From an uncultured Candidatus Saccharibacteria bacterium (GTDB lineage: Bacteria > Patescibacteriota > Minisyncoccia > Phycocordibacterales > SIBU01), in the NCBI GenBank assembly GCA_964430335.1, contig CAYSEN010000001.1:1653-65652 (forward strand): a DNA stretch of 64,000 nt, read 5' to 3'. The notes beneath the pieces were generated by a model that saw only the letters and a list, made by a program, of their open reading frames with translations, was not told the DNA's origin and did no database searches. This document shows, in pieces, positions 30,466-46,584 of the stretch. Positions within the stretch are counted from its first letter, which is position 1; every line of letters begins with the position of its first letter. The translations under genes were made by a program, and so were the position numbers.

Positions 30466-30954
30466 ATGCCTTTAGATAACACGGTTGAAATCATAAAGAA
30501 TATTCTAGGTTTAATGGGTTTAAGGTTTGATTCGGTGGAGAAGGTTGAAGATTCGAAATCGAATTATTTTAAGTATTTAATAAAAACAGAAGAATCGGGA
30601 GTATTGATAGGTCCAAACGGAGCGAATCTAGATGCTTTAAATTACTTAGTACGAAAAATTGTTAGTAAGCAAAATGGCGACGAAACCTCAGCTAAGTTCT
30701 CTATTGATGTGAATGGATATCACGATAAAGCCCTTGAGTCCTTGAAGACTAAGGCAAAAATAATGAGCGACAGAGCCAAATCTTTTAAAATTGATGTAGA
30801 ACTAGACCCTATGTCGTCTTACGAGAGAATGATCGTTCACTCACACCTCGAAGGTGTTCCAGAAATTAAAACCGAATCAATCGGTGAAGGTTCTAGTAGA
30901 AGAGTGGTAATAAAATATATCGGAGCTGTCTCGAATCCAGAGAAATTTATTTAA
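30466..30954 (+). CDS. khpB: Jag/KhpB RNA-binding protein (KH plus R3H)
   Basis: R3H motif YERMIVHSHLEG. Follows yidC. Confidence 0.75.
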   Translation: MPLDNTVEIIKNILGLMGLRFDSVEKVEDSKSNYFKYLIKTEESGVLIGPNGANLDALNYLVRKIVSKQNGDETSAKFSIDVNGYHDKALESLKTKAKIMSDRAKSFKIDVELDPMSSYERMIVHSHLEGVPEIKTESIGEGSSRRVVIKYIGAVSNPEKFI

Positions 30955-32192
30955 TTTGATCCGAGTCTAAGGCTCCAGATATGATAATCAATTTTGTTGG
31001 TTATCATTAGGTAATCTTCTTTAGGGCTAAGCATGAGGTTCATTCCGTCTATATCTTTCTTAGCGTAGTCTTTCAATCTCAATAGTAATTCCCCTGATCC
31101 GGTATCCGTATTTATTTTCCATATTTCATCTGAAAACAAAACTTGTCCTTTATACCAAGAGTCCGGGTACAAACCTTGCGGAATATATGATGGAACACTG
31201 CAATAGATAATTTCTTGGTTATTCTTTGACCAGACACATTTTTCTGGGAATGTAGAAACTGGCGTGTCGGTTACCTTCCCTGTTTTGAAGGAATAGATCT
31301 TAAAATTTATTCCACCTGATGTGCTTTCCGAATAAACTGCGCGCTCGCCTTTCAAATCAGTTTTAGTGGTCAGTCCATTTATGTTAGATATCGCCTTTGT
31401 TAATTGGCCGTTTTTAGCATTTAGCATAAACATTACCCCACCGGCGCCTGCAGATGGTTTCGATGTTATTGTGATAATGTTTGAGCTAGGCCAATCAACT
31501 AGCCACTCCGTAAGTGGTGAATCAAAAATTTGTGTCCTTTTAGCGTTATCAAAATCTGCCACAATTCCGTTACTGCCAACCGAACTCTGGAGTAAATAAA
31601 AGATTTTATCTTTGTCTGGGTTGATTGTGATTGATTTGATATTTTCCGCCATAAAATTACCACCCAAAGCACCGTCTGGATGATCAGAGTTTTTGTCCTG
31701 TATGTAGGCGTTGTATGACTTTATGTTATCGCTATCATCCTCCGCGTATCTTATTATTATTTTCTTCCCTGTTTTGTCCCAAATCGCTTCTTCGATTTTT
31801 GGAATGGTCGTGTTGGTCACTCGATCCTCGGCGTCATTTTGGGGACTAACATTGTATACATTACCTGTCCCTTTTTCTATAAAGCTAACAATAATATTTG
31901 ACGAACTCGCCGTGATTGTCGCTCCTGCAATCGGTCTGGTTGAGAGTTCTTTTAAAACAGGGATAAACGCGTTTCCTGTCGGTGTTTCGCTCTGGCTGGG
32001 TGTGCTAGTACCGATGTTTGTTTCTGGGCTGGGATTCTCACCTCCTGGGAAGGGGTTTTCGATTTTAGGGTTTTGGTTTTGGTTTGAATCTACCTTATTG
32101 TTATTTTTTGTATAAAAATAGAAAACAAGCAGGCCTCCTGAAACCAGAAGCAAAACCAAAATAATTATGATGATAGCGGTTTTTTTAGACAT
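30951..32192 (-). CDS. N-terminally anchored extracytoplasmic protein (operon member)
   Basis: TM IIIIILVLLLVSGGLLVFYF followed by a beta-rich domain. Last gene of the minus-strand operon. Confidence 0.5.
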   Translation of the reverse strand: MSKKTAIIIIILVLLLVSGGLLVFYFYTKNNNKVDSNQNQNPKIENPFPGGENPSPETNIGTSTPSQSETPTGNAFIPVLKELSTRPIAGATITASSSNIIVSFIEKGTGNVYNVSPQNDAEDRVTNTTIPKIEEAIWDKTGKKIIIRYAEDDSDNIKSYNAYIQDKNSDHPDGALGGNFMAENIKSITINPDKDKIFYLLQSSVGSNGIVADFDNAKRTQIFDSPLTEWLVDWPSSNIITITSKPSAGAGGVMFMLNAKNGQLTKAISNINGLTTKTDLKGERAVYSESTSGGINFKIYSFKTGKVTDTPVSTFPEKCVWSKNNQEIIYCSVPSYIPQGLYPDSWYKGQVLFSDEIWKINTDTGSGELLLRLKDYAKKDIDGMNLMLSPKEDYLMITNKIDYHIWSLRLGSN

Positions 32193-33287
32193 TTAATTAT
32201 TTGGCCAATTTCTGCAACTAAGTAGAATATGACTCTTGCCAGATGTCTGACCTGTTTGATCCGCACAAGCCTTTTTAATAATTTCGATTGTTTCATCGGC
32301 TTTTTTTCTTATTGCCTTTGCTAGCTCTGGGTCACTATACTGATTATTTGCCCTACTTATTGCGGCGACAGCTTCATTGTCTACCGTTCTCATCATCTCG
32401 TTGGCAATCTTAGAGTTCCCTTTGTTTATATCGTTGAAGGCTATGAACGGAGCGGTAATATTTAAATTTTGAAATTTATCTAACTCCAATTTTTTAGCAG
32501 CGGGCTCGTCATTGAACCTAAGCATGTCTTTTATTTCGTTGTTAAAACTACCAATCATTAATTTTTGATAGCCTGACGCATTTTGAGCACTATCAGCAGA
32601 CAGGTCATTTACCGTCTGATTAACAGCAAGTCTCCTATTCATTTCTATTGCTTTTTGTGATTCCATTTGCAACGCGTCTTTTTCCAGTTTATCAGCTGCG
32701 TCCCTCATGGCCACATAAGATTCTGGACTGGTTGCCTGATCCATTTGAGACCGGATCTGATTAGCCGTGGCCTTCTTTTCATCGGCGGTTTTTGTTACGT
32801 CAGCAACTTCTTGTCGCAATTTAGTATAAAGATTATCGAGGGTTTGAAGATCTGTCGGAGCCAGAATTTCTTTACCAGCCTTTGCCTGCTTCCAGAATAG
32901 AAAATTCATACTCACGAGCGTTGGGTCAATGGTATACAAAATAATGTAGGAAGTAAGAGCAAGTATAAGCCCTCCAATAGCTCGCTCTATTCTCGCCTTC
33001 CCTTCCTCTTTTCCTGTAATAGCGTCGGTCGATAGGTATTCAAAACCGCCAAGAACTATCATTAAGAATGCCAAAATACCTGCTAAAGCAATCCCGACTT
33101 TAAATGAACCAATTAAATAAACAGAAAGGTTGGTAGCACATGGTGGAGTGGCACAGTTGGGCGTCGTGCCTGGGATAGGCGCAAGTGGTACATAGTCAGC
33201 TGCCGAGAGTGTTAAAACTGGTAAAAGAAAAAAACTTAGGATTAGCAGAGTTTTAAATAGGCTGTTTTTTATTTTTTTTAATCGCAT
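32193..33287 (-). CDS. membrane protein with VirB2/TrbC-like N-terminal module (signal peptide plus two hydrophobic helices) and coiled-coil C-terminus
   Basis: Signal peptide, then VGIALAGILAFLMIVLGG ... AIGGLILALTSYIILYTI with a short charged loop between. The pilin-like topology is only suggestive. Confidence 0.4.
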   Translation of the reverse strand: MRLKKIKNSLFKTLLILSFFLLPVLTLSAADYVPLAPIPGTTPNCATPPCATNLSVYLIGSFKVGIALAGILAFLMIVLGGFEYLSTDAITGKEEGKARIERAIGGLILALTSYIILYTIDPTLVSMNFLFWKQAKAGKEILAPTDLQTLDNLYTKLRQEVADVTKTADEKKATANQIRSQMDQATSPESYVAMRDAADKLEKDALQMESQKAIEMNRRLAVNQTVNDLSADSAQNASGYQKLMIGSFNNEIKDMLRFNDEPAAKKLELDKFQNLNITAPFIAFNDINKGNSKIANEMMRTVDNEAVAAISRANNQYSDPELAKAIRKKADETIEIIKKACADQTGQTSGKSHILLSCRNWPNN

Positions 33288-33292
33288 TTTAT

Positions 33293-34306
33293 TTAAAATT
33301 GAACCTCACTTGTTTTTCCAAAACTCAAAGAGATGTCATTTGCTGCCATTTGGAACATCTTATCTGGGTTTGAAATTTGAAGGCTTACAAAGGATACACC
33401 TTTTGTGTCTTTGTCTTGCCTAAAAATTAAAGTGCTTTTGTTACCAGAATTTACAATGTTGCCATTTTGTCTCCATTCATATTTCAAATTATTACCTTCC
33501 CTCTCTTTTGCGCCAATAAAATATGGAATACCGACAATGCTTATTTCAGATTGACTAAGTACTGTATTGCTACTTAAGGCTCTGTTGTACTGTATTCCAT
33601 ATATAGGACTGTTTTCATAAAACAAGAGTTGAGGCAGTTGAGGTGCTAGGGAAATTGTTTTTGAAGCGTTGTATTTTTTATCTAACGTGGACACATCTAC
33701 TGATATTTTAACTGTGTTTGGCAACGTTCCGCCAGTGTAAATCATGTAATTTTTACCTAAACCTGAGGCTTGGGAAACTGCATCTCCGTCTATTGACCAC
33801 GTGTATACTAGATTTTTAGAAGATTCCTGAACGCCTCCGATAACAATGTTTGGCACTGCGACAATCTTAACACTCCCCTGCATTGGATAGATGGCCTTAC
33901 CTTTATAGAAAGGAGGTGTATAGGATTGTGCCTCCCAAATCAAATCCACATTTGCCGGGTTAATGTTTAGAGTTTGTTGGTATGATTGCCCATTCTTGTC
34001 TTTTATTAAAACAAGAATGTTTGTACTGCTACCAATGGGGCCAGTTTTAAACATTAATGTTTTGTCACCAGTGGCCTCCTTTTCTAGTTGACCGTTAATG
34101 AACCAAGATATTTCAGTTCGGTTTAAATCAATTGCATAGCTCTCCAAATTAACTTTAACGAATTGGTTTGGTCCGGGATAAGTAGGATCAGTGGTTATCA
34201 GTATGTTGTTTGAACTTCCAGAACCGCCTAATACTTGAAGGTCGGCAAATGATACTAAAGGTAATAAAAATAAAGCTATGAGAAATGTGATTGAAACAGG
34301 TTTCAT
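33293..34306 (-). CDS. secreted beta-rich repeat protein (operon member)
   Basis: Signal peptide. Repeated roughly 90-aa Ig-like segments. Confidence 0.5.
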   Translation of the reverse strand: MKPVSITFLIALFLLPLVSFADLQVLGGSGSSNNILITTDPTYPGPNQFVKVNLESYAIDLNRTEISWFINGQLEKEATGDKTLMFKTGPIGSSTNILVLIKDKNGQSYQQTLNINPANVDLIWEAQSYTPPFYKGKAIYPMQGSVKIVAVPNIVIGGVQESSKNLVYTWSIDGDAVSQASGLGKNYMIYTGGTLPNTVKISVDVSTLDKKYNASKTISLAPQLPQLLFYENSPIYGIQYNRALSSNTVLSQSEISIVGIPYFIGAKEREGNNLKYEWRQNGNIVNSGNKSTLIFRQDKDTKGVSFVSLQISNPDKMFQMAANDISLSFGKTSEVQF

Positions 34307-34333
34307 GTACTAATATTTTATCACAGAAAAAAA

Positions 34334-35236
34334 TTATTCAGTTAAGCTGTTTTCCTCATCTTCTTTAGCCTTTTTTCTTTGACCGTAAGAGAGAGATAAA
34401 TCTAGCAAATTACTTCTAAACTTTAAGGCGTCTTTGCTTTTTTGCCTCTCCTCGTTGTTTGCGCTCCCCCTTAGGTCTAGGCTGTTAGGATCTGAAGCGT
34501 CATCTTCCGCCCCTTGGTCAGAATTATTGTTACTATAACTTCTGCTTTCACGACTGGTCTGCCTTCTCGAGGTTTTTTGTTTCGGTGTGCTGTTTCTGTT
34601 GTTTTGATTTTCCTCCCCGATTGCTCCTTCATTGTTGTCTCCCAATTCACCACCATCTGAGTCTCCGTTTTCTTGATCATCATCCCCCTCCTCATCTTCG
34701 TCATCTAATTCCGGAGGAACGGATTCGTTTTCTGCCACCTCACCCGCTAGAGAGGCTCCTTCGGCACCAGCACCTACTTCTGCCCCTACCCCAGAGGCCA
34801 CAGCTCCTTCAGCTGCCAAAGAAGCACCTCCTGTTTCAGGAGCCAAAGCCACAGCTCCGGCAGCCACCGCGACTTTTGCAATTTTTGCTAATTTCTTTTC
34901 AGCTTCTACGGAAGCGTACATTACAATCCCGTCTAAAAACCAAAATGGCATCGCGTCTACGTCAGGAATCTCTTCTAGTAAAAACCCTAAACTGACAGTT
35001 AGTATTTTAGGTGCGTCAAAATTTACTCCTCTTAAATATAGATATGTCGGCCAAGCAAGTCCTGTAGCGAAGCTAATAAAACGATTCAAGAGTGTCCCTA
35101 CAGTTGCTATGAAAGGAATTCCAATCCAATCCAACACAAATTGGGCAATATCAATAATGCCGAGAATGGATATAACCATTCCCCACTCTAGTTTGCTGAT
35201 GTTTGGGCCACTTTTTTTAGCTTTTTTCTCGGCCAT
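34334..35236 (-). CDS. membrane protein with Ala/Gly-rich region and disordered acidic C-terminal tail
   Basis: 3-4 TM helices, then a DDEDEEGDDDQENGDSDGGE tail. Confidence 0.5.
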   Translation of the reverse strand: MAEKKAKKSGPNISKLEWGMVISILGIIDIAQFVLDWIGIPFIATVGTLLNRFISFATGLAWPTYLYLRGVNFDAPKILTVSLGFLLEEIPDVDAMPFWFLDGIVMYASVEAEKKLAKIAKVAVAAGAVALAPETGGASLAAEGAVASGVGAEVGAGAEGASLAGEVAENESVPPELDDEDEEGDDDQENGDSDGGELGDNNEGAIGEENQNNRNSTPKQKTSRRQTSRESRSYSNNNSDQGAEDDASDPNSLDLRGSANNEERQKSKDALKFRSNLLDLSLSYGQRKKAKEDEENSLTE

Positions 35237-35248
35237 TTGCTAAGGGTT

Positions 35249-37066
35249 TTACTTCTGGTCGCTGCTTTCCAAATCTTGTTTTGCCTGCTTGATCGCAAGT
35301 AGTTGTGACGGGTCTGAGGTGATGATCTGGTCTTCAGTGTACGAAGCGATCACTTTTATAGCGACGTGCTTTAGTCCCACGAAGAAAATTCCCTCACCTA
35401 CGTCCGATTCGAGTAGCAGATATTTTTCTTCATCAGTAAGACTAAAAGTTTTTTGAATTTTATCAATAGACGAGGGTGATTGTTTTAGCAACATTTGAAT
35501 AGAAGAGTTCGTGATGATAGGTAGTCCGTATGGAGATTTTAGGAAGTCGTCCACGTCTTGAGTAATGGTTGAAAGACCAAGGTAATATTTTCTTCCTCTT
35601 TTTGCCAGTCCAAGTAGGAATGAAGCCGTATCTTCTGATTTCATCATCCACCAAGCCTCGTCGATAACCAAAAGTCTTTTCTTAAGGTTTTTACGAATGG
35701 CGTTCCAGATGTAGTGCATGACTATATACATCGCCACCGGCTTTAGTTCATCTTCCATGTCTCTAAGAGAAAATACGATAAATTTACTATCAATATCGAT
35801 GTTTGAAGGTCGGTTAATAAAACCAGCCCAAGTTCCTCTTGTGTATTTACTTAGTCTTTGGACCAAAGAGTCCGCTCCTTCCATTCCAGCCAATACCAAT
35901 TCAAAATCAGACAGAAGTGGTGGCTCTACATTTCTAAAATCTGAATCAGGTGAAATGTCTTTGAGTGCGTACGTTTCGCTGATTGCGCGGTCTATAAGAG
36001 CGTCTTCCTCTGGTGTTAGGCCCCCTAACATGATTCTGAAAAGGCCAACAAGGTTAATTATGTTAGAGCGTAAAACATCTGCTGGTGACTCGTCTTCTCT
36101 TGGAATAGGCAAATCAAATGGGTTTATATGATGACTTGAGTTTAGTGAAATCGTAAAGTACTTCCCTCCCGTAGCCTCTGCCATATATTCGTATTCTCTT
36201 TCAGGATCAATCACGATAACTTCTGTATCAAACATCAAAGTTCTTAAAATTTCCAATTTGGTATTGTAACTTTTACCAGAACCAGATTTCGCAAAAGTAA
36301 TTGAGTTGTAGTTTTCCAAACTAAATCGATCAAAAAGCACAAGCGAAGAATTATGTCTGTTGATTCCGTACAAAATACCTTTGTCAGAAGTTAGGTCGAA
36401 AGAAGTGAATGGAAAAAGCGAAGAAAGAGGTTCAGAATTTAACTTCGAATGAATCATGAGTTCATCCTTAGCCATTGGCATAACACTTCGGAAACCTTGT
36501 TCTTGTTGGAAGAGTGCAGGCTTAATGTAAATCAATTTCGATTCCAAAAGTGATTTTATCTCCGACTCAATTTTGTCGAGCTCTGCATCAGAGTCTGCGT
36601 AAATAGACATGTACAGACCAACATCAAATAATTTTTCCTGAGCTTGCATCAAATTGTCACGCAACCTCTCAAGGTCTTGATATGCAGTATCTAGCATCGG
36701 GTCTCTGACCAGCCCTTTTTTCTCCCTAGTGCTGATTTGGCTTTGAACCTCGGCCACTTTTTTCTGAAATTGTCTCAAGACAGTGGCTGTGTCTATCGGG
36801 TGAATCATTATGGAAATATCAAAAACCTTGTCTAGGTTTATGATAGGAGAAAACCACCCAGCTGAAAGAAATCTAGGATATGAAATTACGAAAAAAGTTC
36901 TTACGATTTTATCACCCAAGTTTAGCGCTCTCGGACTAACCTTTAGAGCTGATGGTGCTATAACATCCTTAAGCTCTAATACACCTGCCTCGTAAATTTC
37001 TTGTGGAAGAATCGAGGCGATGTCTGGAGTCTTATCTTTGCTTTTTAGAAAATCAAATAATCCCAT
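35249..37066 (-). CDS. virB4: VirB4/TrbE-family T4SS ATPase, C-terminal roughly 605 aa (middle plus ATPase domains)
   Basis: Walker A FAKSGSGKSY, Walker B RLLVIDEAWWMM and upstream VIDPEREY. Start set at MGLFDFLKSK. The ORF-track upstream extension to 37171 is in the overlapping frame. Confidence 0.8.
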   Translation of the reverse strand: MGLFDFLKSKDKTPDIASILPQEIYEAGVLELKDVIAPSALKVSPRALNLGDKIVRTFFVISYPRFLSAGWFSPIINLDKVFDISIMIHPIDTATVLRQFQKKVAEVQSQISTREKKGLVRDPMLDTAYQDLERLRDNLMQAQEKLFDVGLYMSIYADSDAELDKIESEIKSLLESKLIYIKPALFQQEQGFRSVMPMAKDELMIHSKLNSEPLSSLFPFTSFDLTSDKGILYGINRHNSSLVLFDRFSLENYNSITFAKSGSGKSYNTKLEILRTLMFDTEVIVIDPEREYEYMAEATGGKYFTISLNSSHHINPFDLPIPREDESPADVLRSNIINLVGLFRIMLGGLTPEEDALIDRAISETYALKDISPDSDFRNVEPPLLSDFELVLAGMEGADSLVQRLSKYTRGTWAGFINRPSNIDIDSKFIVFSLRDMEDELKPVAMYIVMHYIWNAIRKNLKKRLLVIDEAWWMMKSEDTASFLLGLAKRGRKYYLGLSTITQDVDDFLKSPYGLPIITNSSIQMLLKQSPSSIDKIQKTFSLTDEEKYLLLESDVGEGIFFVGLKHVAIKVIASYTEDQIITSDPSQLLAIKQAKQDLESSDQK

Positions 37067-37070
37067 ATTT

Positions 37071-37721
37071 TTATTTAACTTGAATTGGCTTTTCGGTGTC
37101 ACCCGGATTAAATATTTTGTAGAAAAGTTCCACCACCTCTTCTGTTCCGAGCAAAACTGCTCTAATACCACATCTCATAAGTCCTTGTTCTACAACGGAA
37201 ATTCTCTGTAGCAGTTGGCTTCGGCTCTCCTCAAATGCATCTTGTTTTCTCTGCGATTTTTCAACCGCTTCTTTTCTGGTCAAGAATTTTCCTGCTAATT
37301 CTATCACTCCCCCTTTGGCTTGGAGAGGTGCTGGAGCGTAGGGTATGACAACAAAAAAGGTCTTAGTCATAATGCTCGTGCTTTCTGTAAAATTTTTGAT
37401 GAATTCTATGTACTCTCTTGTTTGAGTTTTCATCAGATCAGTCGTCTGGTTTTTGTAGGTCTCTTCTAGGAGTGCAATATATGGTCTGATATCCAATTTT
37501 CTCGATTCGATAAATAGTTGCACGGAAAAATCTAGAGAATTTAGAAAGTTCTGGAATTGCAATATGATAGCGTTTTGGTTGTCCTCAGACTTTAGTGCAA
37601 AGTTTAAAGACGAAGTCATGACTATTCCACGAAACGAGCCGTCTCTAAGCACGACAATACCGTCCCGAACCTCTTTGATCGGTACGAATTCTTGAGTCGC
37701 CTTAGAACTTTCTGTCGCCAT
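37071..37721 (-). CDS. VirB4 N-terminal domain encoded as a separate 216-aa ORF
   Basis: FVPIKEVRDGIVVLRDGSFRGIVMTSSLNFALKSEDNQNAIILQFQNFLNSL...VQLFIESRK matches, from memory, the first 100 aa of Agrobacterium VirB4 (PYIGHLSDHIVLLEDGS...GVAFELEE...FNTLLRNI...VSIYAHLVRH). The stop TAA lies 4 nt before the ATG of the ATPase ORF. Confidence 0.6.
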   Translation of the reverse strand: MATESSKATQEFVPIKEVRDGIVVLRDGSFRGIVMTSSLNFALKSEDNQNAIILQFQNFLNSLDFSVQLFIESRKLDIRPYIALLEETYKNQTTDLMKTQTREYIEFIKNFTESTSIMTKTFFVVIPYAPAPLQAKGGVIELAGKFLTRKEAVEKSQRKQDAFEESRSQLLQRISVVEQGLMRCGIRAVLLGTEEVVELFYKIFNPGDTEKPIQVK

Positions 37722-37771
37722 GCCTTGTATTATAACTTAGATTGCGATTGTTATTAACGATTTTTCTGTGC

Positions 37772-38200
37772 CTATCTATTTTCCATAGTCTCTTTTACTC
37801 CTGGATTCTGAGTGTCATTTATATCAAGGCTCCATGTGAGATCCTTGAGTTTGCTATCAGATAACTTTGGAACATATAGAGGTGACTGTGACTCCACTTC
37901 TTCTTTGTGCTGAGGTTTCTTCTCAGTTTTCTTCCAAATATAGAGCTTGTCAGTGAAAAAATATTTAAATGCTGCTTCAACCACAAAGACGAAAGGACGA
38001 TTGTTAACCTTGTATAGCGCTAAAGCAAGGGAAAATGCTATTACTGGAGCCATTAAAAATATGGCGATATAAAAGTTTAGGTAATGGTATATTATAAATG
38101 AAAGACCTGCCCCACCAGCAAGATAGACAAATTGTTTGACCGTAAAAGGGCCGAAAATTTTGTCTTCAATTTCTATGAATTGTGGAACTTGGAATCTCAT
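37772..38200 (-). CDS. PrgI/VirB3-like small T4SS membrane protein
   Basis: MRFQVPQFIEIEDKIFGPFTVKQFVYL followed by two hydrophobic helices. Lies immediately upstream of VirB4, as do VirB3/PrgI homologs. Confidence 0.55.
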   Translation of the reverse strand: MRFQVPQFIEIEDKIFGPFTVKQFVYLAGGAGLSFIIYHYLNFYIAIFLMAPVIAFSLALALYKVNNRPFVFVVEAAFKYFFTDKLYIWKKTEKKPQHKEEVESQSPLYVPKLSDSKLKDLTWSLDINDTQNPGVKETMENR

Positions 38201-38208
38201 TTGTTTTT

Positions 38209-40038
38209 TTAAGCTATAGGTTCTCTGTAAGGGTCAGAACTATATTTTGCCTCAGTCTTCTTTGATTGAACAGGAGCTCCTAGTTTCTGTTCAATGATAT
38301 TTTTTGCAGGCATTGTTGGTATTGGTCTTTGACCTATCACTATTTTTGGAATTTCTCTAGGTGTTTCTTTGATTGGGTTTTGTGATGGAGTGCTGGAAAT
38401 ATTAGGCGTAGAGGCTTTAGGTGCTGGTGCGATTACTATTTTCGGCATTGGTTCTGGAGCCTTTGGTTTTGGTGGCGCAGGAGGTTGCGGTAATCTGTCC
38501 TCTACTGGTTTAGGTGGTGCCACAGGAGGCCTTGGTGGTGTCGGAATCTGAGAAACTGGTTTCGGAGGCATTGGGGGAACAGGAGGGGTCGCACTACTTA
38601 CAGGCTTTTGAGGGGGCACAAACTTCGGTGGCTGTGGAGGAACAGGTTTTGCTGGTTCTGCGGGTCTGATATTTTGAGAAATTTTAACTTTTTCTGGCTC
38701 AGGCTTAAACCAATCCTGCGCTGTGAATTTTTCGGTATCTAGAGAAGTAGATGAATTTGGATTTTCGATATCTTTTAAAATTGCTTCTCTGTTAGGCAGG
38801 ACTTCCTCGCTCTTTTTTATAGGTTCTGCTTCGTTTGGTTGTATTGGTGAGAGTCTCGTTTTTAGGGTGTTGCTTGTGTATGAAGAAGGCACTTCCCCGT
38901 TTACTTGTTTTAACGCCTCACGTATTTTAAGGAAAACTTCGTTATTAATTTCTTGGGCAAGAGATTTGGTTTTTTCTTCATTAATTCCGAGTCTTCTTGA
39001 TAGTCTTGGTAAGAATTGAGATGTGGGCGTCATTCCTAGAATAACCATGCCTGTCTCTTCCCCGAGTTCCCCGAGCTTGTCTACATGTAGAGCATATTTT
39101 CTACCGATGTCCAAAACTTTTTTTGCGGAATCAACAGATCTCAATGCGTTTTTTAATGTGTAAGGAAGTTTGTCGAATCTGGCCTGTAGCTCCTTTTCGC
39201 TCAACTTGCTCGAGAGCATTTTCAGGAATGATCCGAGAGGATTTTCGGACATTCTTTCACTATTCATTTCAACAATAGGAGGTCGGCTAAAATTACTTTG
39301 CGCACCGCTAGAAATCTCTGAGCTATTTGCCGTTGAGGTTGGTGTGTAGACTTTTGTGGTGGAGAATTCTGATAGTGGCTGTGGAGGAACAGGGGCTAAT
39401 TTGGATGGCTGGAAATTCTCGAAACCAAAATCCTTTGTGTTACTAATGTATGAGGGTTTGATTTCAGCTTGTTCTTTTGGTTTCTCCGGAATAATTTTTT
39501 TAATTGGTACAGATCTTTCCTGGCTCTGAGCGACTGATTCAGCGGAATCAGGTTCTGATTGCGAATCGATTTTGTCTTGCTCATTAAATTCGATTCCGGA
39601 ATCGTTTATCGGCATTCTTGGGGCGCTAATTTCGGCTTCTTGTGTTTCAGTATTTTCCTGTACAGGATTTCCCTCTTCTTGTGCTTGTGTTTCGGCCGGA
39701 GTTTCGTTGATTGTTAAAGGAGAAATGCCGAGAGCTGGCAGTATTTTGGTAAAAATTTTTTCGTTGATCTCGCTTACAATGGTCGCAACTTTTTCTCTAT
39801 TATCCTCGTCTAATTTTTCTAGTAACTTTTCCTCAAATTCAGTAACCGGTATTTCCTTTTTTGCGATCTTTTCTATTACCTCGCAAGTCTCGCCTATTTC
39901 GGCGTAGGTTATTTCTATTTGATTTAAAATTTCCTCGATCCGTTCAATAAGGGCCGTATCTGGGAAAACAGAATTAAACTCCGGGTTTAACCTTTTAATT
40001 GTTTGAAGTAAATTGTTTTCTTGTGAAATGAATTTCAT
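38209..40038 (-). CDS. acidic/proline-rich low-complexity protein (no TM detected)
   Basis: Extensive PxxP tracts PPQPPKFVPPQKPV... in the C-terminal third. Coiled-coil N-terminus. Confidence 0.5.
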   Translation of the reverse strand: MKFISQENNLLQTIKRLNPEFNSVFPDTALIERIEEILNQIEITYAEIGETCEVIEKIAKKEIPVTEFEEKLLEKLDEDNREKVATIVSEINEKIFTKILPALGISPLTINETPAETQAQEEGNPVQENTETQEAEISAPRMPINDSGIEFNEQDKIDSQSEPDSAESVAQSQERSVPIKKIIPEKPKEQAEIKPSYISNTKDFGFENFQPSKLAPVPPQPLSEFSTTKVYTPTSTANSSEISSGAQSNFSRPPIVEMNSERMSENPLGSFLKMLSSKLSEKELQARFDKLPYTLKNALRSVDSAKKVLDIGRKYALHVDKLGELGEETGMVILGMTPTSQFLPRLSRRLGINEEKTKSLAQEINNEVFLKIREALKQVNGEVPSSYTSNTLKTRLSPIQPNEAEPIKKSEEVLPNREAILKDIENPNSSTSLDTEKFTAQDWFKPEPEKVKISQNIRPAEPAKPVPPQPPKFVPPQKPVSSATPPVPPMPPKPVSQIPTPPRPPVAPPKPVEDRLPQPPAPPKPKAPEPMPKIVIAPAPKASTPNISSTPSQNPIKETPREIPKIVIGQRPIPTMPAKNIIEQKLGAPVQSKKTEAKYSSDPYREPIA

Positions 40039-40050
40039 AAATCAATTTTT

Positions 40051-43000
40051 CTAAGCCTTTCGCCATTGATCGCTAGCAAAAGTAATTTGCTTACTCGGTG
40101 ATTCAGCCTGATTTTCCAGTTCACTGTACACACTTCTGAGTTCAGGGCTCAAAGTTTCGATCGGTCTGGTTATTGTTTTACTTCTAGGATCTAGGAATAA
40201 ATATTTTAACAATCTTCTGTTTTCATCGGTAACTAATCCATAACCATCTTTCTCTGCTTTGTATGATTTCAATAAACTTTCGAATAGAGATGTAATATCT
40301 TCGCTGTCCTTGTCCTTAAATTGTTGGAAAATACCTTCATCGATCATTGAGTGCACTATCTCGCTATTTCTTGTTCGGCTTCTAGCGCCAGCTAATTCGT
40401 TCGCAGCTCTTCCTGACTTCCAGTTTAAGGCAATACTTCTTCTTAATGTGTCTCCAAGAGTGCCTTTTGAGTAAGTTTCCATGAAAGCTGTGTTCATTGT
40501 CTTGCTTATTTCATCTGGTGTTGCACCAGGCGTTGATGTAAGTAGTGCTTGTTTAGCATCTTCTGCAGCTTTTTTGGCTGCATCAAATGCCGCTTTTCTG
40601 GTCACACTCTCTTCCATTGCTTTCTTTTTTACTTCCTCGATTTCTTCCTTGGTTGCGGTAGGTTTTGAAGCCTTTAGGGCAGCCACAGCCTTTTCAGCAT
40701 CTCTTTCCCCATCACTTTTTATGTAGTTAGGGTCATTTGTTACTACGATCTTATCCATGTCAGAATCTTTATCGTAACTTAATCGGTCTCTTAGGTTAAA
40801 GGCGAAGTTTTCATTTGTTCGTATTTCCTTGTTTGTTAACCCCCATCTCATTGTGTGAACTAGCTCTTTTATGTCAAACATGTTTGGAGCTACAAATGAC
40901 GCCAGTTCGTATTCAGGTAGAGTCATCTTGTTTCTAGCCCAAGCTTTAAGATTACCTGGAAGGGTAGGCTTTGATTCAGGGTTTTCAATCTTCTCACCTG
41001 TGTTAAGTACTGCATACCTCACTCCGTTGATTGTTTGAATTGCACTTTCATCTACATCGCCGTTCTCTGGGTTTACCTGAACTTTACCGTCCAAAATGGC
41101 TTTTCGTACCGCTGCCTTCTTAGCGTCGTAATCATCAACCTGTTTTTGATAAACTGCGAATTGTTGAATTTCGTCTTTCCATCTTGAACCAATCATTTCT
41201 TGTTTTTCTTCCATTGTCCAGTGATCATTGGCAAGCACAGCCTTTAGTTGTTTCAGGGTGGCGTACCTTGAGAATTCTTCAATAGTGTGTTCATCCAGAT
41301 CGGCAAAATCCTCCGGTGCAATCCTTGTTACCGCTGAAGACAGTGCAGACTCGGCTTTCTTAGTGGCATCGTCGGCCAACTTGATTCTAGCCTGATCTTT
41401 ACTTGCTCTAGCAGCTTCCATTTCTTCCCTAGCTTTATCCAGCTGAGTTAGTCCGGATTTAGCAAAATCAATTTGCCCAAGTGCAAATCTTCGATTTTTT
41501 AGTTTCTCACTATCTTCATAATATTCTTCAACTGACTCTTCCCCACCAAATTTTGCATGGGCTCCAAAAAGGGATCCACCGGTAGTCTTTTTTCTTATAA
41601 AACTTCCCAATTCAGTAGCACCAAAACCTGTACGTTTGAATTTTTTATCCAATTCGTTGATATCGATATTTTTTTGTACCTTTTCCGCTCCGCTCTTAAA
41701 TTTGTCACCAAAATTTTTAAGTCCTTCTCTACCCGTCCATTTTCCAAGTGTACTAGCGGCTCCACCGACAACATTTCCAACTGCGGATACATATGTGCCT
41801 CTAACTACAGTTCTACCAACAAACGCTCTGGCCTCCTTCCCTACCTCATCTGCAAACTCAACTCCAGTCGCCTCAAGTTTGTGAGCCACCATGATTGAGC
41901 CTAGCATCAATCCAATTAGAAGAATGAAGTTAAATACAAATGCTAGTCCTGCCGTTGTGCCGTTGTCTGCACCTCCAGTACCAAAGATTAGTTTAGCGGC
42001 TGAAACGGCGGTAGAGGCCGCTGAGTACGCAGTGTCTTGTCGGTTTACGGTCATAACACCAAACTTAAATGCATCAGTTTGAATGGTTAAAACTACCACA
42101 TAGCAAAGCGCCATATATATCGGTGCGAATATAGATTGGCTGATGAGTTTTTCCTTCCATTCCTCCGCGTAGTGTTCGGTAGAAGGAAGCACAAATGATA
42201 GAAAACCTAGAGGCGAAAGAATCATTACCATCATAAGTACTACCACTCTTATTATGAAAAGTATGGCTGCTACTATGAAAACGTACGCGGCGGTAATCAT
42301 CAAAATAATGCCGAATATTCCAATTAAAATAATTTTGCCAAAGTTTATTACTCCTCCCGCGATTTGGCTGTTAAGATCAGACTGAATGCCTGCCTGTTGC
42401 AATGCTTGGCCCCCTGCGGTTTGCGGTTCGTAGACTGTTTGTATCTTGAGACCTTCCATGAACGCTCCTGAAAAACTTGAGGTCGGAGTAGCGTAATTAC
42501 TTACAAAGGACTGTATTTCATCCCCGTTTGGTTTAGGATTTGGTGTCACAATCAGGTTATAGAAATGGAGAGCGACAATGTTTGACCCGTCAATAACAGC
42601 CTTTGTAATGAAAAGGCTGAAGTTCATGAGTAATGCCACGATAACGAGATTTACGATAATTTCCTTTGTCTTCCCTGTCGCTAGACCGAGAATGGTTCCT
42701 ATAGCTGTCCAAAGCAAAATGAAAATAAATAAAATATTGGCCAAATCTCTGAAGATTCTCCAACCAATGTCTACTATTGGCACATGCTTCATAAGGTCGG
42801 CCATGTTTAAGGTGTAGTAGATCGACATGTCTAAGATCTTTCCGGCTAGCCACAAAAACCATGAGAAAATCCACATGATTATGTAGACAATACTTGCTGC
42901 GCAAGCGTCCAGGTTTAAGGAAGGAATACCAAAATTGCCACTAAGACATCCGATGGTGGTTGGAGGATTTTTACCGTTTGCACCTTGGTTGTCGGCACTG

Positions 43001-43188
43001 GCCGCTTTTTGACCCGTGGATTGAGGTGTTGTCTGCGCCCCGTTAGGACTCGGTGCCGCAGCTCCTGTAACTACCGAGTTAGGGTTAAGTTCTTGAACCT
43101 GAGCGAAAGCCGTCTCAACACCCAGCGGGTTTAAAAAACCACTTAACAGAGTTGCTAGTATGAATGTTGATAATAAAATTTTTTTCAT
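40051..43188 (-). CDS. VirB6/TrbL-like polytopic membrane protein with roughly 600-aa hydrophilic C-terminal extension
   Basis: Signal peptide, then at least 6 TM helices across residues 95-480. A long coiled-coil-rich C-terminus. VirB6-like topology and neighbourhood. Confidence 0.55.
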   Translation of the reverse strand: MKKILLSTFILATLLSGFLNPLGVETAFAQVQELNPNSVVTGAAAPSPNGAQTTPQSTGQKAASADNQGANGKNPPTTIGCLSGNFGIPSLNLDACAASIVYIIMWIFSWFLWLAGKILDMSIYYTLNMADLMKHVPIVDIGWRIFRDLANILFIFILLWTAIGTILGLATGKTKEIIVNLVIVALLMNFSLFITKAVIDGSNIVALHFYNLIVTPNPKPNGDEIQSFVSNYATPTSSFSGAFMEGLKIQTVYEPQTAGGQALQQAGIQSDLNSQIAGGVINFGKIILIGIFGIILMITAAYVFIVAAILFIIRVVVLMMVMILSPLGFLSFVLPSTEHYAEEWKEKLISQSIFAPIYMALCYVVVLTIQTDAFKFGVMTVNRQDTAYSAASTAVSAAKLIFGTGGADNGTTAGLAFVFNFILLIGLMLGSIMVAHKLEATGVEFADEVGKEARAFVGRTVVRGTYVSAVGNVVGGAASTLGKWTGREGLKNFGDKFKSGAEKVQKNIDINELDKKFKRTGFGATELGSFIRKKTTGGSLFGAHAKFGGEESVEEYYEDSEKLKNRRFALGQIDFAKSGLTQLDKAREEMEAARASKDQARIKLADDATKKAESALSSAVTRIAPEDFADLDEHTIEEFSRYATLKQLKAVLANDHWTMEEKQEMIGSRWKDEIQQFAVYQKQVDDYDAKKAAVRKAILDGKVQVNPENGDVDESAIQTINGVRYAVLNTGEKIENPESKPTLPGNLKAWARNKMTLPEYELASFVAPNMFDIKELVHTMRWGLTNKEIRTNENFAFNLRDRLSYDKDSDMDKIVVTNDPNYIKSDGERDAEKAVAALKASKPTATKEEIEEVKKKAMEESVTRKAAFDAAKKAAEDAKQALLTSTPGATPDEISKTMNTAFMETYSKGTLGDTLRRSIALNWKSGRAANELAGARSRTRNSEIVHSMIDEGIFQQFKDKDSEDITSLFESLLKSYKAEKDGYGLVTDENRRLLKYLFLDPRSKTITRPIETLSPELRSVYSELENQAESPSKQITFASDQWRKA

Positions 43189-43194
43189 GATTCC

Positions 43195-45564
43195 CTATTG
43201 AACGTTGATTGTGCTTGTTTGTGTCGCAATCACACTCTCCTTTGATGTATTTGTGGCCGGTTTATACACTTCTGTAATCAATTGATACTTATATCCTAAC
43301 ACCGCACTGCTTTTAATGTGTCCGATCTGATCGATTTGTAACGAATTAGCCGAGGTTAGTGTTAGGGATTTGTTGTAAGTAAATGTTGTTTGTGACATAT
43401 CATCTGCAAAAAATACGAATTCTGTTTTTTTGTTTTCTGGTTTTGTGGTTTCGTTTATCTGGAAGGAATCAAATAGCGTTGAAAGTGAAAATGATGTTCC
43501 GTCCTGGCTTTTTAGGCTAATTCTTACTCTTAATCCCGGAATGTCTTGGTTGTTATCAAGTACCAAGGCGTTGCTAAATGAATCACCAGGGTTTTTGTTG
43601 ATGTTGTTGATCTGTGCCATTGCAAACGAAGTGTCTAATGGGGATGAGCTGTCTACCGGTCCACCACCTGTTGTGTTTGATGAGGTGTTAGTAGAAGGTT
43701 TGTAAAGCTCTACTTTGTAAATGGCAATTTCGTTTGGATTGGAAACCACGATAGCGTTCGCTGTTATCGGCTGATTTAGTGTGATAGTAAAGTCGTCTAC
43801 AGATCCAGAAAATGTGAAGTTGGAGTTAGCACCGCTGTTACTTGATGGGTAGTGGAAAACCACGTAACTCATAATGTCATTTTTCGAAACAGGAATACCT
43901 GTTTTGTCTGCTGGCATATTTGCTAGGTAGACTTCGTTACCAGTACCGTGACCAGGATATGATCGGACCTTAATAATTTGAACTTTATCAGATTGATTTA
44001 GAGCTGCAGACCACCAGTGTGGAGCAGGTCCACCGCTGGTCCAAGAAAAACTGTAACCCCCTACTGCGTTCTGAGGTCCGTAGGTTCTGCCATCGCCATC
44101 GATTCCTACATAAGACTGATTTAGCTTTGCGCTGTTTAGGTTAATACTTCTGTCCGGAGGTGCTTGTGTTGCTGGTTTTGTGACGACTGGTGCAGTCACT
44201 GAATTGTTGCCGTCAATAAATTCGTTTGTACCGTTTGCAATAGATGTGGTTTTGTCGATGTTCTTACAATAAAGTACGACGTTGTTGTAATTGGCTACAG
44301 TCCACTTTGTGGTGGTGTTGTCTGCGCCAATTTTTACTGTAGGCGTGTATGATGCCGTTTTGCTAACTACTCCGTTGATCTTTACCAATACTGGTGAAGT
44401 AAGGGTCGGTTGAGTGTTGGTCGGTGTATCAACTCCGTAAATGTTTTTATTAAATTCATTACAGAACTGAAGTCCTGTAGGTCCATTGGCACCTGTTGGT
44501 CCAATACCGTTTACATACAGACCGTCTGGAAGATTTTTTGCTTGGTTGTTTTCAGAAATGATTTGATCACTACTACTCTTAAGGGCCTTGTCTACTGCCG
44601 ACTGTCCTCCGTTGTCATATGATGGAGTACTTGCTCCAGCTAAGCCCCCTACTCCTCCTAAGACCTGATTTATTAGTTGTCCAACAAGCGCTCCCAATAT
44701 TGCATCAAGATCTTTTGCTAGGCCAACTCGGTGAACTTGCTCGCCAAGAGTGTTTGATAGTTGGTCTTCGATGAGTGACCCTGGCGTCGTGATCTTCCCT
44801 GTTTTTGGATCTACAGAAGAAAGAAATCCTTTACCGAAATCTAATTGTTTTGTAAGTCTAAACTGAACACCCGCAATTCTTGCGTCAACTGTGTTTACGG
44901 CTTGAAGATATGAGCCGTAAATATTATTTTGCGGAGTGACTGTTAGATTAAGCCAGTTATCCCATCCATTCTTGCCGAACACTCCTGTGGTGAAAGCTCT
45001 TTGTACGTTTTTTTGGATATCACTTAGTCTACACCCCACATACTGATAATAGTCAGGTCTCGAGTATTGAATTCCAAGGGAAATTCTTAATTGAAAATCA
45101 AAAGGACTACATACAATCGAACCGATTGGACCTAGGCCTTCAATGAAAGTTCCCGCAGCCTGATCGGCGGCGTCAGCCAAAAAACCTTGTAGGTTAGTTA
45201 CGTATAGAGGGCTTCCGCTAAAGCCGTTGTTGATCCAGTTTACGGTTTGGGCGGTGAAATTGTCGAGCAGAGATCTGGCCATGATCGTCACAAGTGGCTC
45301 GACAATACATCTCTGTATTGTAAAACCTGTAGTCTGACCTGCTGTTTCGCTGTTTGCGCTATGGTTTGCTGAGTCGTAAGTAGGCACAGCCTGTATTTGA
45401 TTGGCCACTCCTTGGGCTAACTGCTTACCTTTCGTTGCCAAAATTCCCGCCAGACAAGATGAATCGGCGTGCGCCCCATTTGGAAGAGCTGTTAGAAAAG
45501 GTCCTACTATCAAAAGTAATGTTGCGAGTATTCCGAAAGTTTTTTGTTTCAAATTATTTCTCAT
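43195..45564 (-). CDS. large secreted/surface protein (789 aa)
   Basis: Signal peptide MRNNLKQKTFGILATLLLIVGPFLTALPNGAHA. Thr/Ser/Asn-rich beta-rich sequence. Confidence 0.5.
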   Translation of the reverse strand: MRNNLKQKTFGILATLLLIVGPFLTALPNGAHADSSCLAGILATKGKQLAQGVANQIQAVPTYDSANHSANSETAGQTTGFTIQRCIVEPLVTIMARSLLDNFTAQTVNWINNGFSGSPLYVTNLQGFLADAADQAAGTFIEGLGPIGSIVCSPFDFQLRISLGIQYSRPDYYQYVGCRLSDIQKNVQRAFTTGVFGKNGWDNWLNLTVTPQNNIYGSYLQAVNTVDARIAGVQFRLTKQLDFGKGFLSSVDPKTGKITTPGSLIEDQLSNTLGEQVHRVGLAKDLDAILGALVGQLINQVLGGVGGLAGASTPSYDNGGQSAVDKALKSSSDQIISENNQAKNLPDGLYVNGIGPTGANGPTGLQFCNEFNKNIYGVDTPTNTQPTLTSPVLVKINGVVSKTASYTPTVKIGADNTTTKWTVANYNNVVLYCKNIDKTTSIANGTNEFIDGNNSVTAPVVTKPATQAPPDRSINLNSAKLNQSYVGIDGDGRTYGPQNAVGGYSFSWTSGGPAPHWWSAALNQSDKVQIIKVRSYPGHGTGNEVYLANMPADKTGIPVSKNDIMSYVVFHYPSSNSGANSNFTFSGSVDDFTITLNQPITANAIVVSNPNEIAIYKVELYKPSTNTSSNTTGGGPVDSSSPLDTSFAMAQINNINKNPGDSFSNALVLDNNQDIPGLRVRISLKSQDGTSFSLSTLFDSFQINETTKPENKKTEFVFFADDMSQTTFTYNKSLTLTSANSLQIDQIGHIKSSAVLGYKYQLITEVYKPATNTSKESVIATQTSTINVQ

Positions 45565-45609
45565 GAAAAACTCCGTTACCCAAAAATAATTTGGATAACT
45601 TTGTGTAAA

Positions 45610-46584
45610 TTATAACTTATCAAAGAATTGGTAGCCATCCTCTCCTTTGCCGAAAACAACGTCTTTGCTAATAAAATAAGTTTTGAAGGCGGTTACTGAG
45701 TCCGGAAAATTTTTAGCACTGTCTGCGTAGCTAGCCACTCCTGGCAAAGCCTTTATCGGGTCAGTCAAAATGTATTTTAAACCGTTGATACTCCAGGCCA
45801 TGGCTTCTGTGCTATTTAGCAAAGCCAAGTGAAAAGGAACAGCACTTTTTGGCACCTTCATTGCTAATAGAGAGACCCCGATTTTTTTATAGGCGGCGAT
45901 GTTGTCGTTTAATTTTTCAAGCTCAGCAGGTTTTTTACTCTCTTCTGCCCTGTTTACTATTTCTATCTCGTATTCTAGTTTTTTAGTTGGCGGTTTTTTT
46001 AGTAGAGATGCAATAGAATTGCCATAATTTTTTATAATCTCATTTGATTCCTCTGTAATTAAATTTAAGTCTGATTCTGAGTAAGTCTTTAATTTTTGAG
46101 TATCTATTTCATTTTTGATTGCTTTGTTTAGGAATTCCTGAAAATCAGCCTCAGTTGGAGGGTTTTCAGAATTTCCCGAAGCGATTACTTTCACAAAAAG
46201 CTCTCTTGAAAATTTATCGGTGTCGGTTAGATCTTGCTCGGTTTGTGAATTGATTTTACTGCCTACGGTCTCTTGGTCCAATTTGTCATTTGGCCCTGCA
46301 ACTGTTGGGTTTCTACCACTTTTTATCTCCGCTCCATCCATAACTCCGTCACCGTCAGAATCCGGATTGTGTGAGTCGGTTTTCCATAGTTGCTCTTCCC
46401 AATCTTTAAGTCCGTCGCTGTCATTATCAATTGCCAGGAAGGTGTTGTTTGGGGTCACCTTAGGAGTTCCTGCTACATAGGATGTTTTTTGTGTAAGTTT
46501 TGTGGTTAGAAAAATTAACCCAAAGATTACTATTGCTATAGAAATTAATATTAGTTTTTGTCTCTTTGGATTCATGTTAAGCAA
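45610..46584 (-). CDS. membrane-anchored protein with thrombospondin type-3-like Ca-binding Asp repeats
   Basis: TM then DNDSDGLKDWEE and DSDGDGVMDGAE repeats. First gene of the operon. Confidence 0.5.
   Translation of the reverse strand: MLNMNPKRQKLILISIAIVIFGLIFLTTKLTQKTSYVAGTPKVTPNNTFLAIDNDSDGLKDWEEQLWKTDSHNPDSDGDGVMDGAEIKSGRNPTVAGPNDKLDQETVGSKINSQTEQDLTDTDKFSRELFVKVIASGNSENPPTEADFQEFLNKAIKNEIDTQKLKTYSESDLNLITEESNEIIKNYGNSIASLLKKPPTKKLEYEIEIVNRAEESKKPAELEKLNDNIAAYKKIGVSLLAMKVPKSAVPFHLALLNSTEAMAWSINGLKYILTDPIKALPGVASYADSAKNFPDSVTAFKTYFISKDVVFGKGEDGYQFFDKL

Follow-up and report, generated by a model that had tools for sequence, protein, structure and literature searches.

VirB4 in the window, the 64,000-nt stretch of DNA analysed here, is very probably a genuine two-gene protein of the kind usual in Patescibacteria, in which a 216-aa N-terminal piece (N piece) and a 605-aa ATPase piece rebuild VirB4 in trans. 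The split itself is already known, having been published as a lineage-wide trait, and the present locus leaves current understanding unchanged. Our additions are small and comprise a clade with fused genes, inteins, and inserted cassettes in relatives.

The two ORFs occupy different frames (Table 1), the ATPase ORF starting in frame +1 with respect to the 216-aa ORF, and they meet at the junction caagttaaaTAAaaatATGgga, which includes a run of five A residues. The sequence confirms this layout and the quoted junction as they were given in the original prediction. No Shine-Dalgarno-like motif is seen upstream of the ATPase ATG. The ATPase frame is indeed open for about 35 codons upstream of its ATG, as far back as a GTG at 37171, which would give a 640-aa rather than a 605-aa ORF. 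Two features that had been taken as suggestive lost their weight, however. The A-rich junction and the 4-nt gap are ordinary for such a tightly packed cluster, where neighbouring gaps measure 0–50 nt, and the open frame ahead of the ATG lacks conservation, its median length being 5 codons in 78 related loci.

Table 1. Features of the split virB4 locus and its surroundings in the window.
Feature	Position	Strand	Remarks
216-aa ORF, N piece	37071..37721	-	stop TAA at 37073-37071
605-aa ATPase ORF	35249..37066	-	ATG at 37066-37064
Intercistronic spacer AAAT, 4 nt	37067..37070	-	between TAA and ATG
Walker A GSGKS	36269..36283	-	ATPase residues 262-266
Walker B region VIDEAW	35651..35668	-	ATPase residues 467-472
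PrgI family protein (VirB3-like small membrane protein)	37772..38200	-	directly upstream of N piece
Tightly packed cluster of co-directional genes surrounding the pair	30951..46584	-	ORF list, intergenic gaps
1045-aa protein, putative VirB6-like candidate	40051-43188	-	about 9 hydrophobic segments
364-aa ORF	32193-33287	-	Pfam T4SS_pilin, E 0.005, 17.3 bits, below cut-off 26.6
dnaA	27711-29057	-	Pfam Bac_DnaA E 3e-69
dnaN	26403-27503	-	three DNA_pol3_beta domains

Profile matches and the predicted fold identify the N piece as the N-terminal subdomain of VirB4, TrsD-like and encoded by a gene of its own. The motifs VVLRDGS, LNFALKSED and FQNFLNSL, by which the 216-aa ORF had been assigned to the VirB4 N-terminus, are all located in it. 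The assignment held in HMM searches, in which the N piece matched positions 2–119 of 752 in the CD1110 VirB4 model (E 9e-8) and positions 99–233 in that of Mbov_0397 VirB4 (E 9e-12). Against the NCBIfam TrsD/TraD family NF041427 it scored 21.4 bits (E 1.7e-4; curated cut-off 200), and on its sequence it is a remote TrsD/TraD homologue lying outside that family as curated. The predicted structure has the fold of the VirB4 N-terminal subdomain, R388 TrwK/VirB4 being the sole strong PDB match to the AlphaFold model. The likeness to TrwK emerged by fold comparison only, since a search of PDB with the N-piece sequence gave no meaningful match (the best was a DegV protein, E 1.1). No family was found in a local Pfam-A scan (E<=0.01), perhaps for want of this model in the copy used. 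The label of the model in question, Pfam PF26593, ‘TraC-like’, comes from precomputed annotations only, in which it is assigned to the identical protein P0001, to 120/120 homologues listed and to the fused proteins described below. The N piece is predicted to be soluble, without a transmembrane segment.

The ATPase piece, as far as profile and structure-database matches tell, comprises the latter half of the N-terminal domain of VirB4 and, after it, the RecA-like ATPase domain. It matches NCBIfam NF045971 (VirB4-like, CD1110 family) with 366.2 bits (cut-off 325) over positions 185–733 of 752, and both Walker motifs are present, in keeping with the middle domain and Walker A/B that had been ascribed to this ORF. 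In Pfam it matches P-loop_TraG (E 1e-27, 97.4 bits, cut-off 25.8), AAA_10 and DUF87, with a weak match to the end of TraC_F_IV, and its PDB matches include the VirB4 C-terminal domain 4AG5 (E 1.6e-40) and TrwK (E 5e-6). Homologues among the best 120 matches are 591–645 aa long, mostly about 600–620. The piece does not contain a complete N-terminal domain, its match to the CD1110 model beginning at position 185 and the early positions of the same model falling on the 216-aa ORF. Thus, the two ORFs cover complementary stretches of one model and, as had been proposed, together make up one VirB4; the sequences place this VirB4 in two chains, not in the canonical single chain.

The same conclusion is reached from relatives in which the protein is a single chain. 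More than 110 fused clusters, of 775–807 aa, are found in a Candidatus Colwellbacteria-like clade. Residues 1–211 of the N piece and 27–597 of the ATPase piece are collinear with residues 1–214 and 225–796 of one of these proteins (P0299, 797 aa), and a linker of about 10 residues stands where the N piece has its last 5 residues and the ATPase piece its first ~26. The predicted structure of a fused relative matches full-length TrwK over 607 residues. This model is moderately confident (pLDDT 70.3, pTM 0.51) and was used for the overall TrwK match only; how the two pieces are placed relative to each other is weakly supported by it. Two proteins of ~600 aa near the fused clade (P0409 and P0505) were considered as true splits and rejected, as they start inside the N-domain (…ELYFNYYNP…) and represent truncated gene calls.

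The original prediction had left open whether the locus encodes a two-polypeptide VirB4, a frameshift pseudogene or a product of homopolymer sequencing or assembly error, and comparison with related genomes retains only the first of these. The closest homologues bear the names Taylorbacteria, Paceibacterota and Patescibacteria, the nearest named relatives being Candidatus Taylorbacteria and Paceibacteria. When orthologous loci were compared for a single versus a split virB4, the same stop and a separate ATG were found in 78/78 related species loci holding both genes. The split is not an oddity of one locus but the standard architecture of the lineage, published as TrsD + VirB4 (PMC12102498). 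The spacer between the pieces ranges from -4 to 599 nt (<=19 nt in 58/78 loci), and all three relative frames of the two pieces occur (36/25/17). Six loci carry a whole extra gene between the pieces. The long spacers in relatives are inserted genes with inverted-repeat ends, and tandem-repeat scans of them found little. Stand-alone homologues number in the thousands, at about 212–216 aa or about 600–615 aa, and the N piece stands alone in 149/150 of the best 50%-identity representatives. Conservation in the frame of the N piece extends to within 5 residues of its stop, while the N-terminus of the ATPase, MG(I/L)FDFL, is conserved straight from its ATG. Values of pS are 0.76–0.91, versus pN of 0.13–0.19 for the N piece and 0.09–0.15 for the ATPase piece; only pS and pN are given, not a proper dN/dS, because synonymous sites are saturated. 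These values indicate that both pieces are under purifying selection.

Decay of a once-single virB4 broken by an indel in the window genome would fit the different frames, the 4-nt separation within an A-rich stretch and the 35 open codons ahead of the ATPase. It does not fit a stop and separate ATG kept in every one of the related species loci across differing spacers and frames, nor the abundance of stand-alone homologues, a pN far below the saturated pS in both pieces, or the conservation of each reading frame right up to the junction. The comparative data thus already refute a pseudogene, whose probability is negligible. An artificial stop or frameshift arising from homopolymer sequencing or assembly error, to which the five-A run might have pointed, has practically no chance of being correct either. 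The DNA from PrgI to the ATPase, including the junction, is identical in three independent assemblies (zero mismatches over 2.5–2.9 kb), the contigs coming from separate assemblies of two JGI metagenomes and one SRA run. Fourteen contigs carry the exact 216-aa protein, and the split is kept in all related loci whatever the junction sequence. In annotation, the gene pair should accordingly neither be flagged as a pseudogene nor merged through a frameshift ‘fix’, and the 216-aa ‘hypothetical protein’ should be renamed a VirB4 N-terminal (TrsD-like) subunit.

Programmed +1 ribosomal frameshifting or stop read-through, yielding a fused VirB4 of ~820 aa, would account for the +1 position of the ATPase ORF with its 35 open codons overlapping the 216-aa ORF, and a sister clade does have fused proteins. 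However, the relative frame varies among relatives, the open overlap usually amounts to only about 5 codons, and spacers reach 599 nt, sometimes with whole genes inside. Moreover, a known slippery motif was not found in the overlap when the sequence was read by eye, and the conserved amino-acid sequence keeps to the upstream frame until the stop. On the comparative evidence of frames, overlaps and spacers we rejected programmed frameshifting as extremely improbable.

The gene directly upstream of the N piece encodes a PrgI protein (Pfam PF12666, E 4.4e-9, 37.2 bits, cut-off 27) with one hydrophobic segment at residues 33–51, and the gene is also called in independent assemblies. The order in the window is PrgI, N piece, ATPase, with PrgI two genes upstream of the ATPase. 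The co-directional cluster around them is presumably the remainder of a type IV secretion locus. Scans with NCBIfam and Pfam did not help to identify the large ORFs nearby, and most cluster members have no family match. The sub-threshold T4SS_pilin match on the 364-aa ORF is the sole sign of a VirB2-like pilin in the cluster, and neither a relaxase nor a coupling protein was found among the 17 neighbouring ORFs scanned. The proximity of dnaA and dnaN shows that this cluster lies on the chromosome, near the replication origin.

Building on the homology and fold of each piece, their collinearity with fused relatives, the conserved stop and start and the purifying selection, we propose that the first ~215 residues of VirB4 would be made as a separate soluble protein, and the rest of the N-terminal domain with the ATPase domain from the next cistron. 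Both cistrons would be co-transcribed with prgI. In the window genome translational coupling is probable, given the 4-nt gap and the lack of a Shine-Dalgarno motif, and would lead to roughly equal amounts of the two proteins. Such coupling is not general, because spacers measure 24–599 nt in 20/78 loci. The N piece may then dock non-covalently on the ATPase piece, at its N-terminal region, and on PrgI/VirB3. In R388 TrwK, the N-domain contacts VirB3 and VirB8. The rebuilt N-terminal domain would anchor the ATPase ring at the membrane channel, a role that belongs to the covalent N-domain in TrwK. Another reading makes the 216-aa protein a descendant of the VirB4 N-domain that now acts independently, perhaps as a regulator or by serving substrates or pilins as their chaperone or adaptor. 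We regard this as improbable, since adjacency to virB4 is near-universal: it holds in all 78 of our loci, and 1,664 of the 2,272 TrsD copies detected in Patescibacteria by a published survey, which used the CONJScan/MacSyFinder MPF_FATA TrsD profile, lie near virB4 (Quinonero-Coronel et al. 2025, PMC12102498). Furthermore, a whole clade encodes both parts as one polypeptide, and the fused model matches full-length TrwK over 607 residues.

Together, the stable split and fused versions offer a simple handle on the function of the VirB4 N-subdomain. The type IV secretion system is essential in Candidatus Southlakia epibionticum (Wang et al. 2023, PMC10633639), as is its TrsD copy (PMC12102498), so that in the only Patescibacterium tested an epibiotic life depends on the system. 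The phylogeny made here was an NJ tree. A broader hypothesis is that the cut is homologous in Patescibacteria and in Gram-positive plasmids of the pSK41/pGO1 type and was secondarily re-joined in the Colwellbacteria-like clade. We consider this a tentative possibility, somewhat doubtful at present. If true, it would provide a natural fission/fusion series absent from the 2025 survey, the text of which does not mention TrsD-VirB4 fusions (PMC12102498). It would also make the first VirB4 subdomain a self-folding, detachable adaptor, whose copy number or partners could vary independently of the ATPase ring, and would link the Patescibacteria system specifically with one subclass of monoderm conjugation machines, that of pGO1. 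When the origin of the TrsD homology statement was sought, the name TrsD proved absent from the main text of Guglielmini et al. 2014 (PMC4027160), and neither TrsD nor a split VirB4 is mentioned in the FEMS 2025 nomenclature review.

Among known systems, the staphylococcal conjugative plasmid pSK41 has a comparable arrangement. A 135-aa ORF annotated as hypothetical, which we presume to be TrsC/VirB3-like, is followed by trsD (227 aa) and a VirB4-like DUF87 ATPase (TrsE, 672 aa), an order matching PrgI, N piece and ATPase in the window. Residue 36 of pSK41 TrsE aligns to residue 34 of the window ATPase (E 1e-31, 22% identity), placing the cut at the same point. pSK41 TrsD aligned to a profile of 64 N-piece sequences in hhalign over 174 columns (7–204 versus 33–217), with E 3.8e-4 and a probability of only 36%. 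The pSK41/pGO1 proteins are very remote, with 17% identity to TrsD and 22% to TrsE, and their genes reside on conjugative plasmids, whereas the window locus is chromosomal and near dnaA.

Single-chain VirB4 proteins of monoderm elements (the NCBIfam CD1110 family, 752 positions, and the Mycoplasma Mbov_0397 family) and of the Colwellbacteria clade have the same domains in the same order as the window ORFs, but in one chain instead of two. R388 TrwK/VirB4 (PDB 7O41-7O43, 8RTB, 8RTD) belongs to a diderm system and is a single chain of 823 aa with only 13–17% identity. The VirB3-VirB4 fusions known from some conjugative systems indicate that the boundaries between VirB3, VirB4-N and VirB4-C are evolutionarily plastic, but they run the opposite way, being fusions and not fissions; PrgI is a separate gene in the window, and no VirB3-VirB4 fusion was found in Patescibacteria by the 2025 survey (PMC12102498). 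In that survey TrsD, remotely homologous to the N-terminus of VirB4, is the commonest type IV secretion component beside virB4 in Patescibacteria, and the systems are sited near dnaA, with which the window agrees. The window shares with them the TrsD homologue beside virB4, the upstream PrgI/VirB3 and the proximity of dnaA and dnaN. For nearby pilin-like genes, another published hallmark, the sign in the window is the sub-threshold match on the 364-aa ORF. It is thus an ordinary member of the Patescibacteria systems described there (PMC12102498), without substantive difference.

VirB4 in the window is encoded by two ORFs on the minus strand, a 216-aa ORF (N piece) followed by a 605-aa ORF (ATPase piece) lying in the +1 frame relative to it. 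The layout described in the original prediction was recovered in full, including the different frames, the quoted peptide motifs and junction string, the stop codon 4 nt ahead of the downstream ATG and the Walker A and B motifs on the downstream ORF (see the table). By its profile matches, the 605-aa ORF is a VirB4-type ATPase: it contains P-loop_TraG (E 1e-27), AAA_10 and DUF87 Pfam domains, aligns with the solved VirB4 C-terminal domain (4AG5, E 1.6e-40) and scores 366 bits (cut-off 325) against the NCBIfam CD1110-family VirB4 model, of which it covers only positions 185-733 of 752. The tail of the Pfam TraC_F_IV N-domain model (positions 277-374 of 375) is still found on this piece; judging from these alignments, the cut falls within the classical VirB4 N-terminal domain and not at the boundary of the ATPase domain.

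The missing VirB4 N-terminus is provided by the 216-aa ORF, as originally predicted. It aligns to N-terminal positions of two VirB4 models, CD1110 (positions 2-119, E 9e-8) and that of Mycoplasma (positions 99-233, E 9e-12); a further match is to the model for stand-alone TrsD/TraD proteins (E 1.7e-4). A local Pfam-A scan assigned it to no family; precomputed annotations place the identical protein and all listed homologues in PF26593 'TraC-like'. A sequence-only PDB search gave no match for the N piece. AlphaFold, given 64 homologues, predicts its fold with confidence (pLDDT 86.6, pTM 0.75), and the 14 best Foldseek matches of this model are all chains of TrwK, the VirB4 of plasmid R388. Three stand-alone homologues (P0306, P0338, P0364) reach 300-443 aa, with proline-, glutamine- and alanine-rich low-complexity tails beyond the conserved ...YNPEE motif, implying that the detached subdomain tolerates variation at its C-terminus.

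The original prediction left three options for the split: a genuine two-polypeptide VirB4, a frameshift pseudogene, or a homopolymer sequencing or assembly error. Reproducibility, conserved architecture and selection decide for the first and reject the others, along with programmed frameshifting. An assembly error is incompatible with two findings: independently assembled contigs (two JGI metagenomes, one SRA run) do not differ from the window across 2.5-2.9 kb that include the junction, and the exact 216-aa protein is present on 14 contigs. When 1.8 billion cluster representatives were searched exhaustively, 149 of the 150 best matches to the N piece were stand-alone proteins. Among the best 120 homologues of each piece, N-piece proteins measure 211-254 aa, all but a few of them 211-224, and ATPase-piece proteins 591-645 aa, mostly ~600-620. 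Of 80 orthologous loci taken from species-representative genomes, 78 yielded both genes; in all 78 the first gene stops at the same point and the second has a start of its own, which in 67 fits an MG(I/L)FDFL-like pattern. In comparisons with five species, synonymous sites have reached saturation (pS 0.76-0.91) and pN is far lower (0.13-0.19 for the N piece, 0.09-0.15 for the ATPase piece), which, together with the conserved split, excludes a pseudogene. Programmed frameshifting is contradicted by the variable spacers (≤19 nt in 58 loci, 24-125 nt in 14, 411-599 nt in six), by the use of all three relative phases (36, 25 and 17 loci), by the inserted genes described below and by the open stretch ahead of the ATPase start, with a median of 5 codons in the 78 loci. 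The stretch of 35 codons counted in the window, about as predicted, and the A-rich junction are incidental. The MAG behind one gene pair (L009, DATGWK010000001.1, 68% identity) bears the label 'Candidatus Nanoarchaeia archaeon', and one homologue (P0085) is labelled 'Nitrospira sp.'; both are probably mis-binned or mislabelled contigs.

Each of the six long spacers holds one complete gene, five 23S_rRNA_IVP/bAvd-like and one GIY-YIG, showing that an intervening cistron does not prevent the two pieces from functioning. The four-helix-bundle gene of five species (114-134 aa, PF05635, E down to 4e-43) lies on the same strand, exactly between the N-piece and ATPase genes, and is flanked by 19-34-nt imperfect inverted repeats ~340-400 nt apart. 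Sequence differences between species suggest a recurrent small mobile cassette. In two related loci (L004, L066), and probably in L071, the ATPase ORF carries an in-frame ~662-aa insertion within Walker A (GxGK|S...VHN|S) with LAGLIDADG-like motifs (LLGYIGAEG, YFEGDGG). This insertion resembles an intein that is lodged in the P-loop and bears a homing endonuclease. The ATPase gene of the window lacks such an insert.

Features of the window and of related loci (L, fetched loci; P, homologous proteins)
Feature	Location	Strand	Details
N piece	37721..37071	-	216 aa; TAA at 37073-37071
Spacer	between TAA and downstream ATG	-	AAAT, 4 bases
ATPase piece	37066..35249	-	605 aa; ATG at 37066
Walker A	36283..36269	-	GSGKS, ATPase ORF
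Walker B	35668..35651	-	VIDEAW, ATPase ORF
PrgI	37772-38200		
dnaA	27711-29057		
dnaN	26403-27503		
23S_rRNA_IVP/bAvd-like cassette	L002 4630-5051		
23S_rRNA_IVP/bAvd-like cassette	L010 4630-5077		
23S_rRNA_IVP/bAvd-like cassette	L057 4630-5041		
23S_rRNA_IVP/bAvd-like cassette	L065 4648-5112		
23S_rRNA_IVP/bAvd-like cassette	L076 4331-4781		
Spacer between VirB4 pieces	L033 4645-5244		holds a 97-aa GIY-YIG nuclease gene (PF01541, E 4e-17)
Hairpin	L033 4715-4788		29 nt, near-perfect
ATPase ORF	L004 4635-8435		~1265 aa
ATPase ORF	L066 4640-8434		~1265 aa
Fused-clade locus	L084 544-2937		GCA_964615945.1
Fused-clade proteins	P0299, P0391-P0509		

In a sister clade, assigned to Candidatus Colwellbacteria in several records, both pieces form one protein of 775-807 aa, found in >110 clusters (59-100% identity). 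As in L084, its gene again adjoins PrgI, with rnpA, yidC, dnaA and dnaN close by. The N piece (residues 1-211) and the ATPase piece (27-597) are collinear with residues 1-214 and 225-796, respectively, of the fused 797-aa P0299. Two apparent split forms of ~600 aa (P0409, P0505) proved to be fused genes whose calls were truncated. The fused clade is nested within split forms in a rough NJ tree with TrsD of the staphylococcal plasmid pSK41 as root, tentatively suggesting that the fusion is secondary. The text of the 2025 survey (PMC12102498) makes no mention of TrsD-VirB4 fusions.

With the identity, fold, collinearity, conservation and selection of the two pieces established, a mode of action can be proposed. 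Genes of the tightly packed co-directional cluster are separated by 0-50 nt, and prgI, the N piece and the ATPase piece would be co-transcribed. In this genome, the gap of 4 nt and the lack of a Shine-Dalgarno motif point to coupling by termination-reinitiation, which would yield similar amounts of both proteins. TrwK of R388 contacts TrwM. By analogy, the N piece may bind the N-terminal region of the ATPase piece and PrgI/VirB3, rebuilding the membrane-proximal N-domain that would tether the hexameric motor to the channel. The region upstream of prgI (38209-46584, minus strand) holds four large ORFs in the same direction (609, 1045, 789 and 324 aa), for which Pfam gave no match and NCBIfam at best weak ones, far below cut-off. 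The 1045-aa ORF, with ~9 hydrophobic segments, may be a VirB6-like channel subunit; the C-terminal half of the 609-aa ORF is long and proline-rich.

The two-gene VirB4 is already known and lineage-wide. Quinonero-Coronel et al. 2025 (PMC12102498) describe TrsD as distantly homologous to the N-terminal portion of VirB4. In their survey no T4SS component is commoner in Patescibacteria: 2,272 homologues are reported, of which 1,664 adjoin virB4, and the Ca. Southlakia epibionticum copy appears as essential. Wang et al. 2023 (PMC10633639) showed that epibiotic growth requires the T4SS cluster, which resembles Gram-positive conjugative systems. As reported for Patescibacteria, where PrgI/VirB3 adjoins virB4 close to dnaA/dnaN (PMC12102498), the window has PrgI beside the VirB4 pair and dnaA/dnaN nearby, making it an ordinary member of the described system. 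To this we add four minor points: a fused clade of the Colwellbacteria type, putative P-loop inteins in the ATPase genes of certain relatives, selfish-gene cassettes lying between the two cistrons, and a cut point common to the window and pSK41 TrsD|TrsE. Like the window, pSK41 has a small ORF first, then trsD (227 aa) and then TrsE, a DUF87 ATPase of 672 aa. The N-piece profile aligns tentatively, end to end, with pSK41 TrsD (E 3.8e-4, probability 36%), and residue 34 of the window ATPase corresponds to TrsE residue 36 (alignment E 1e-31).
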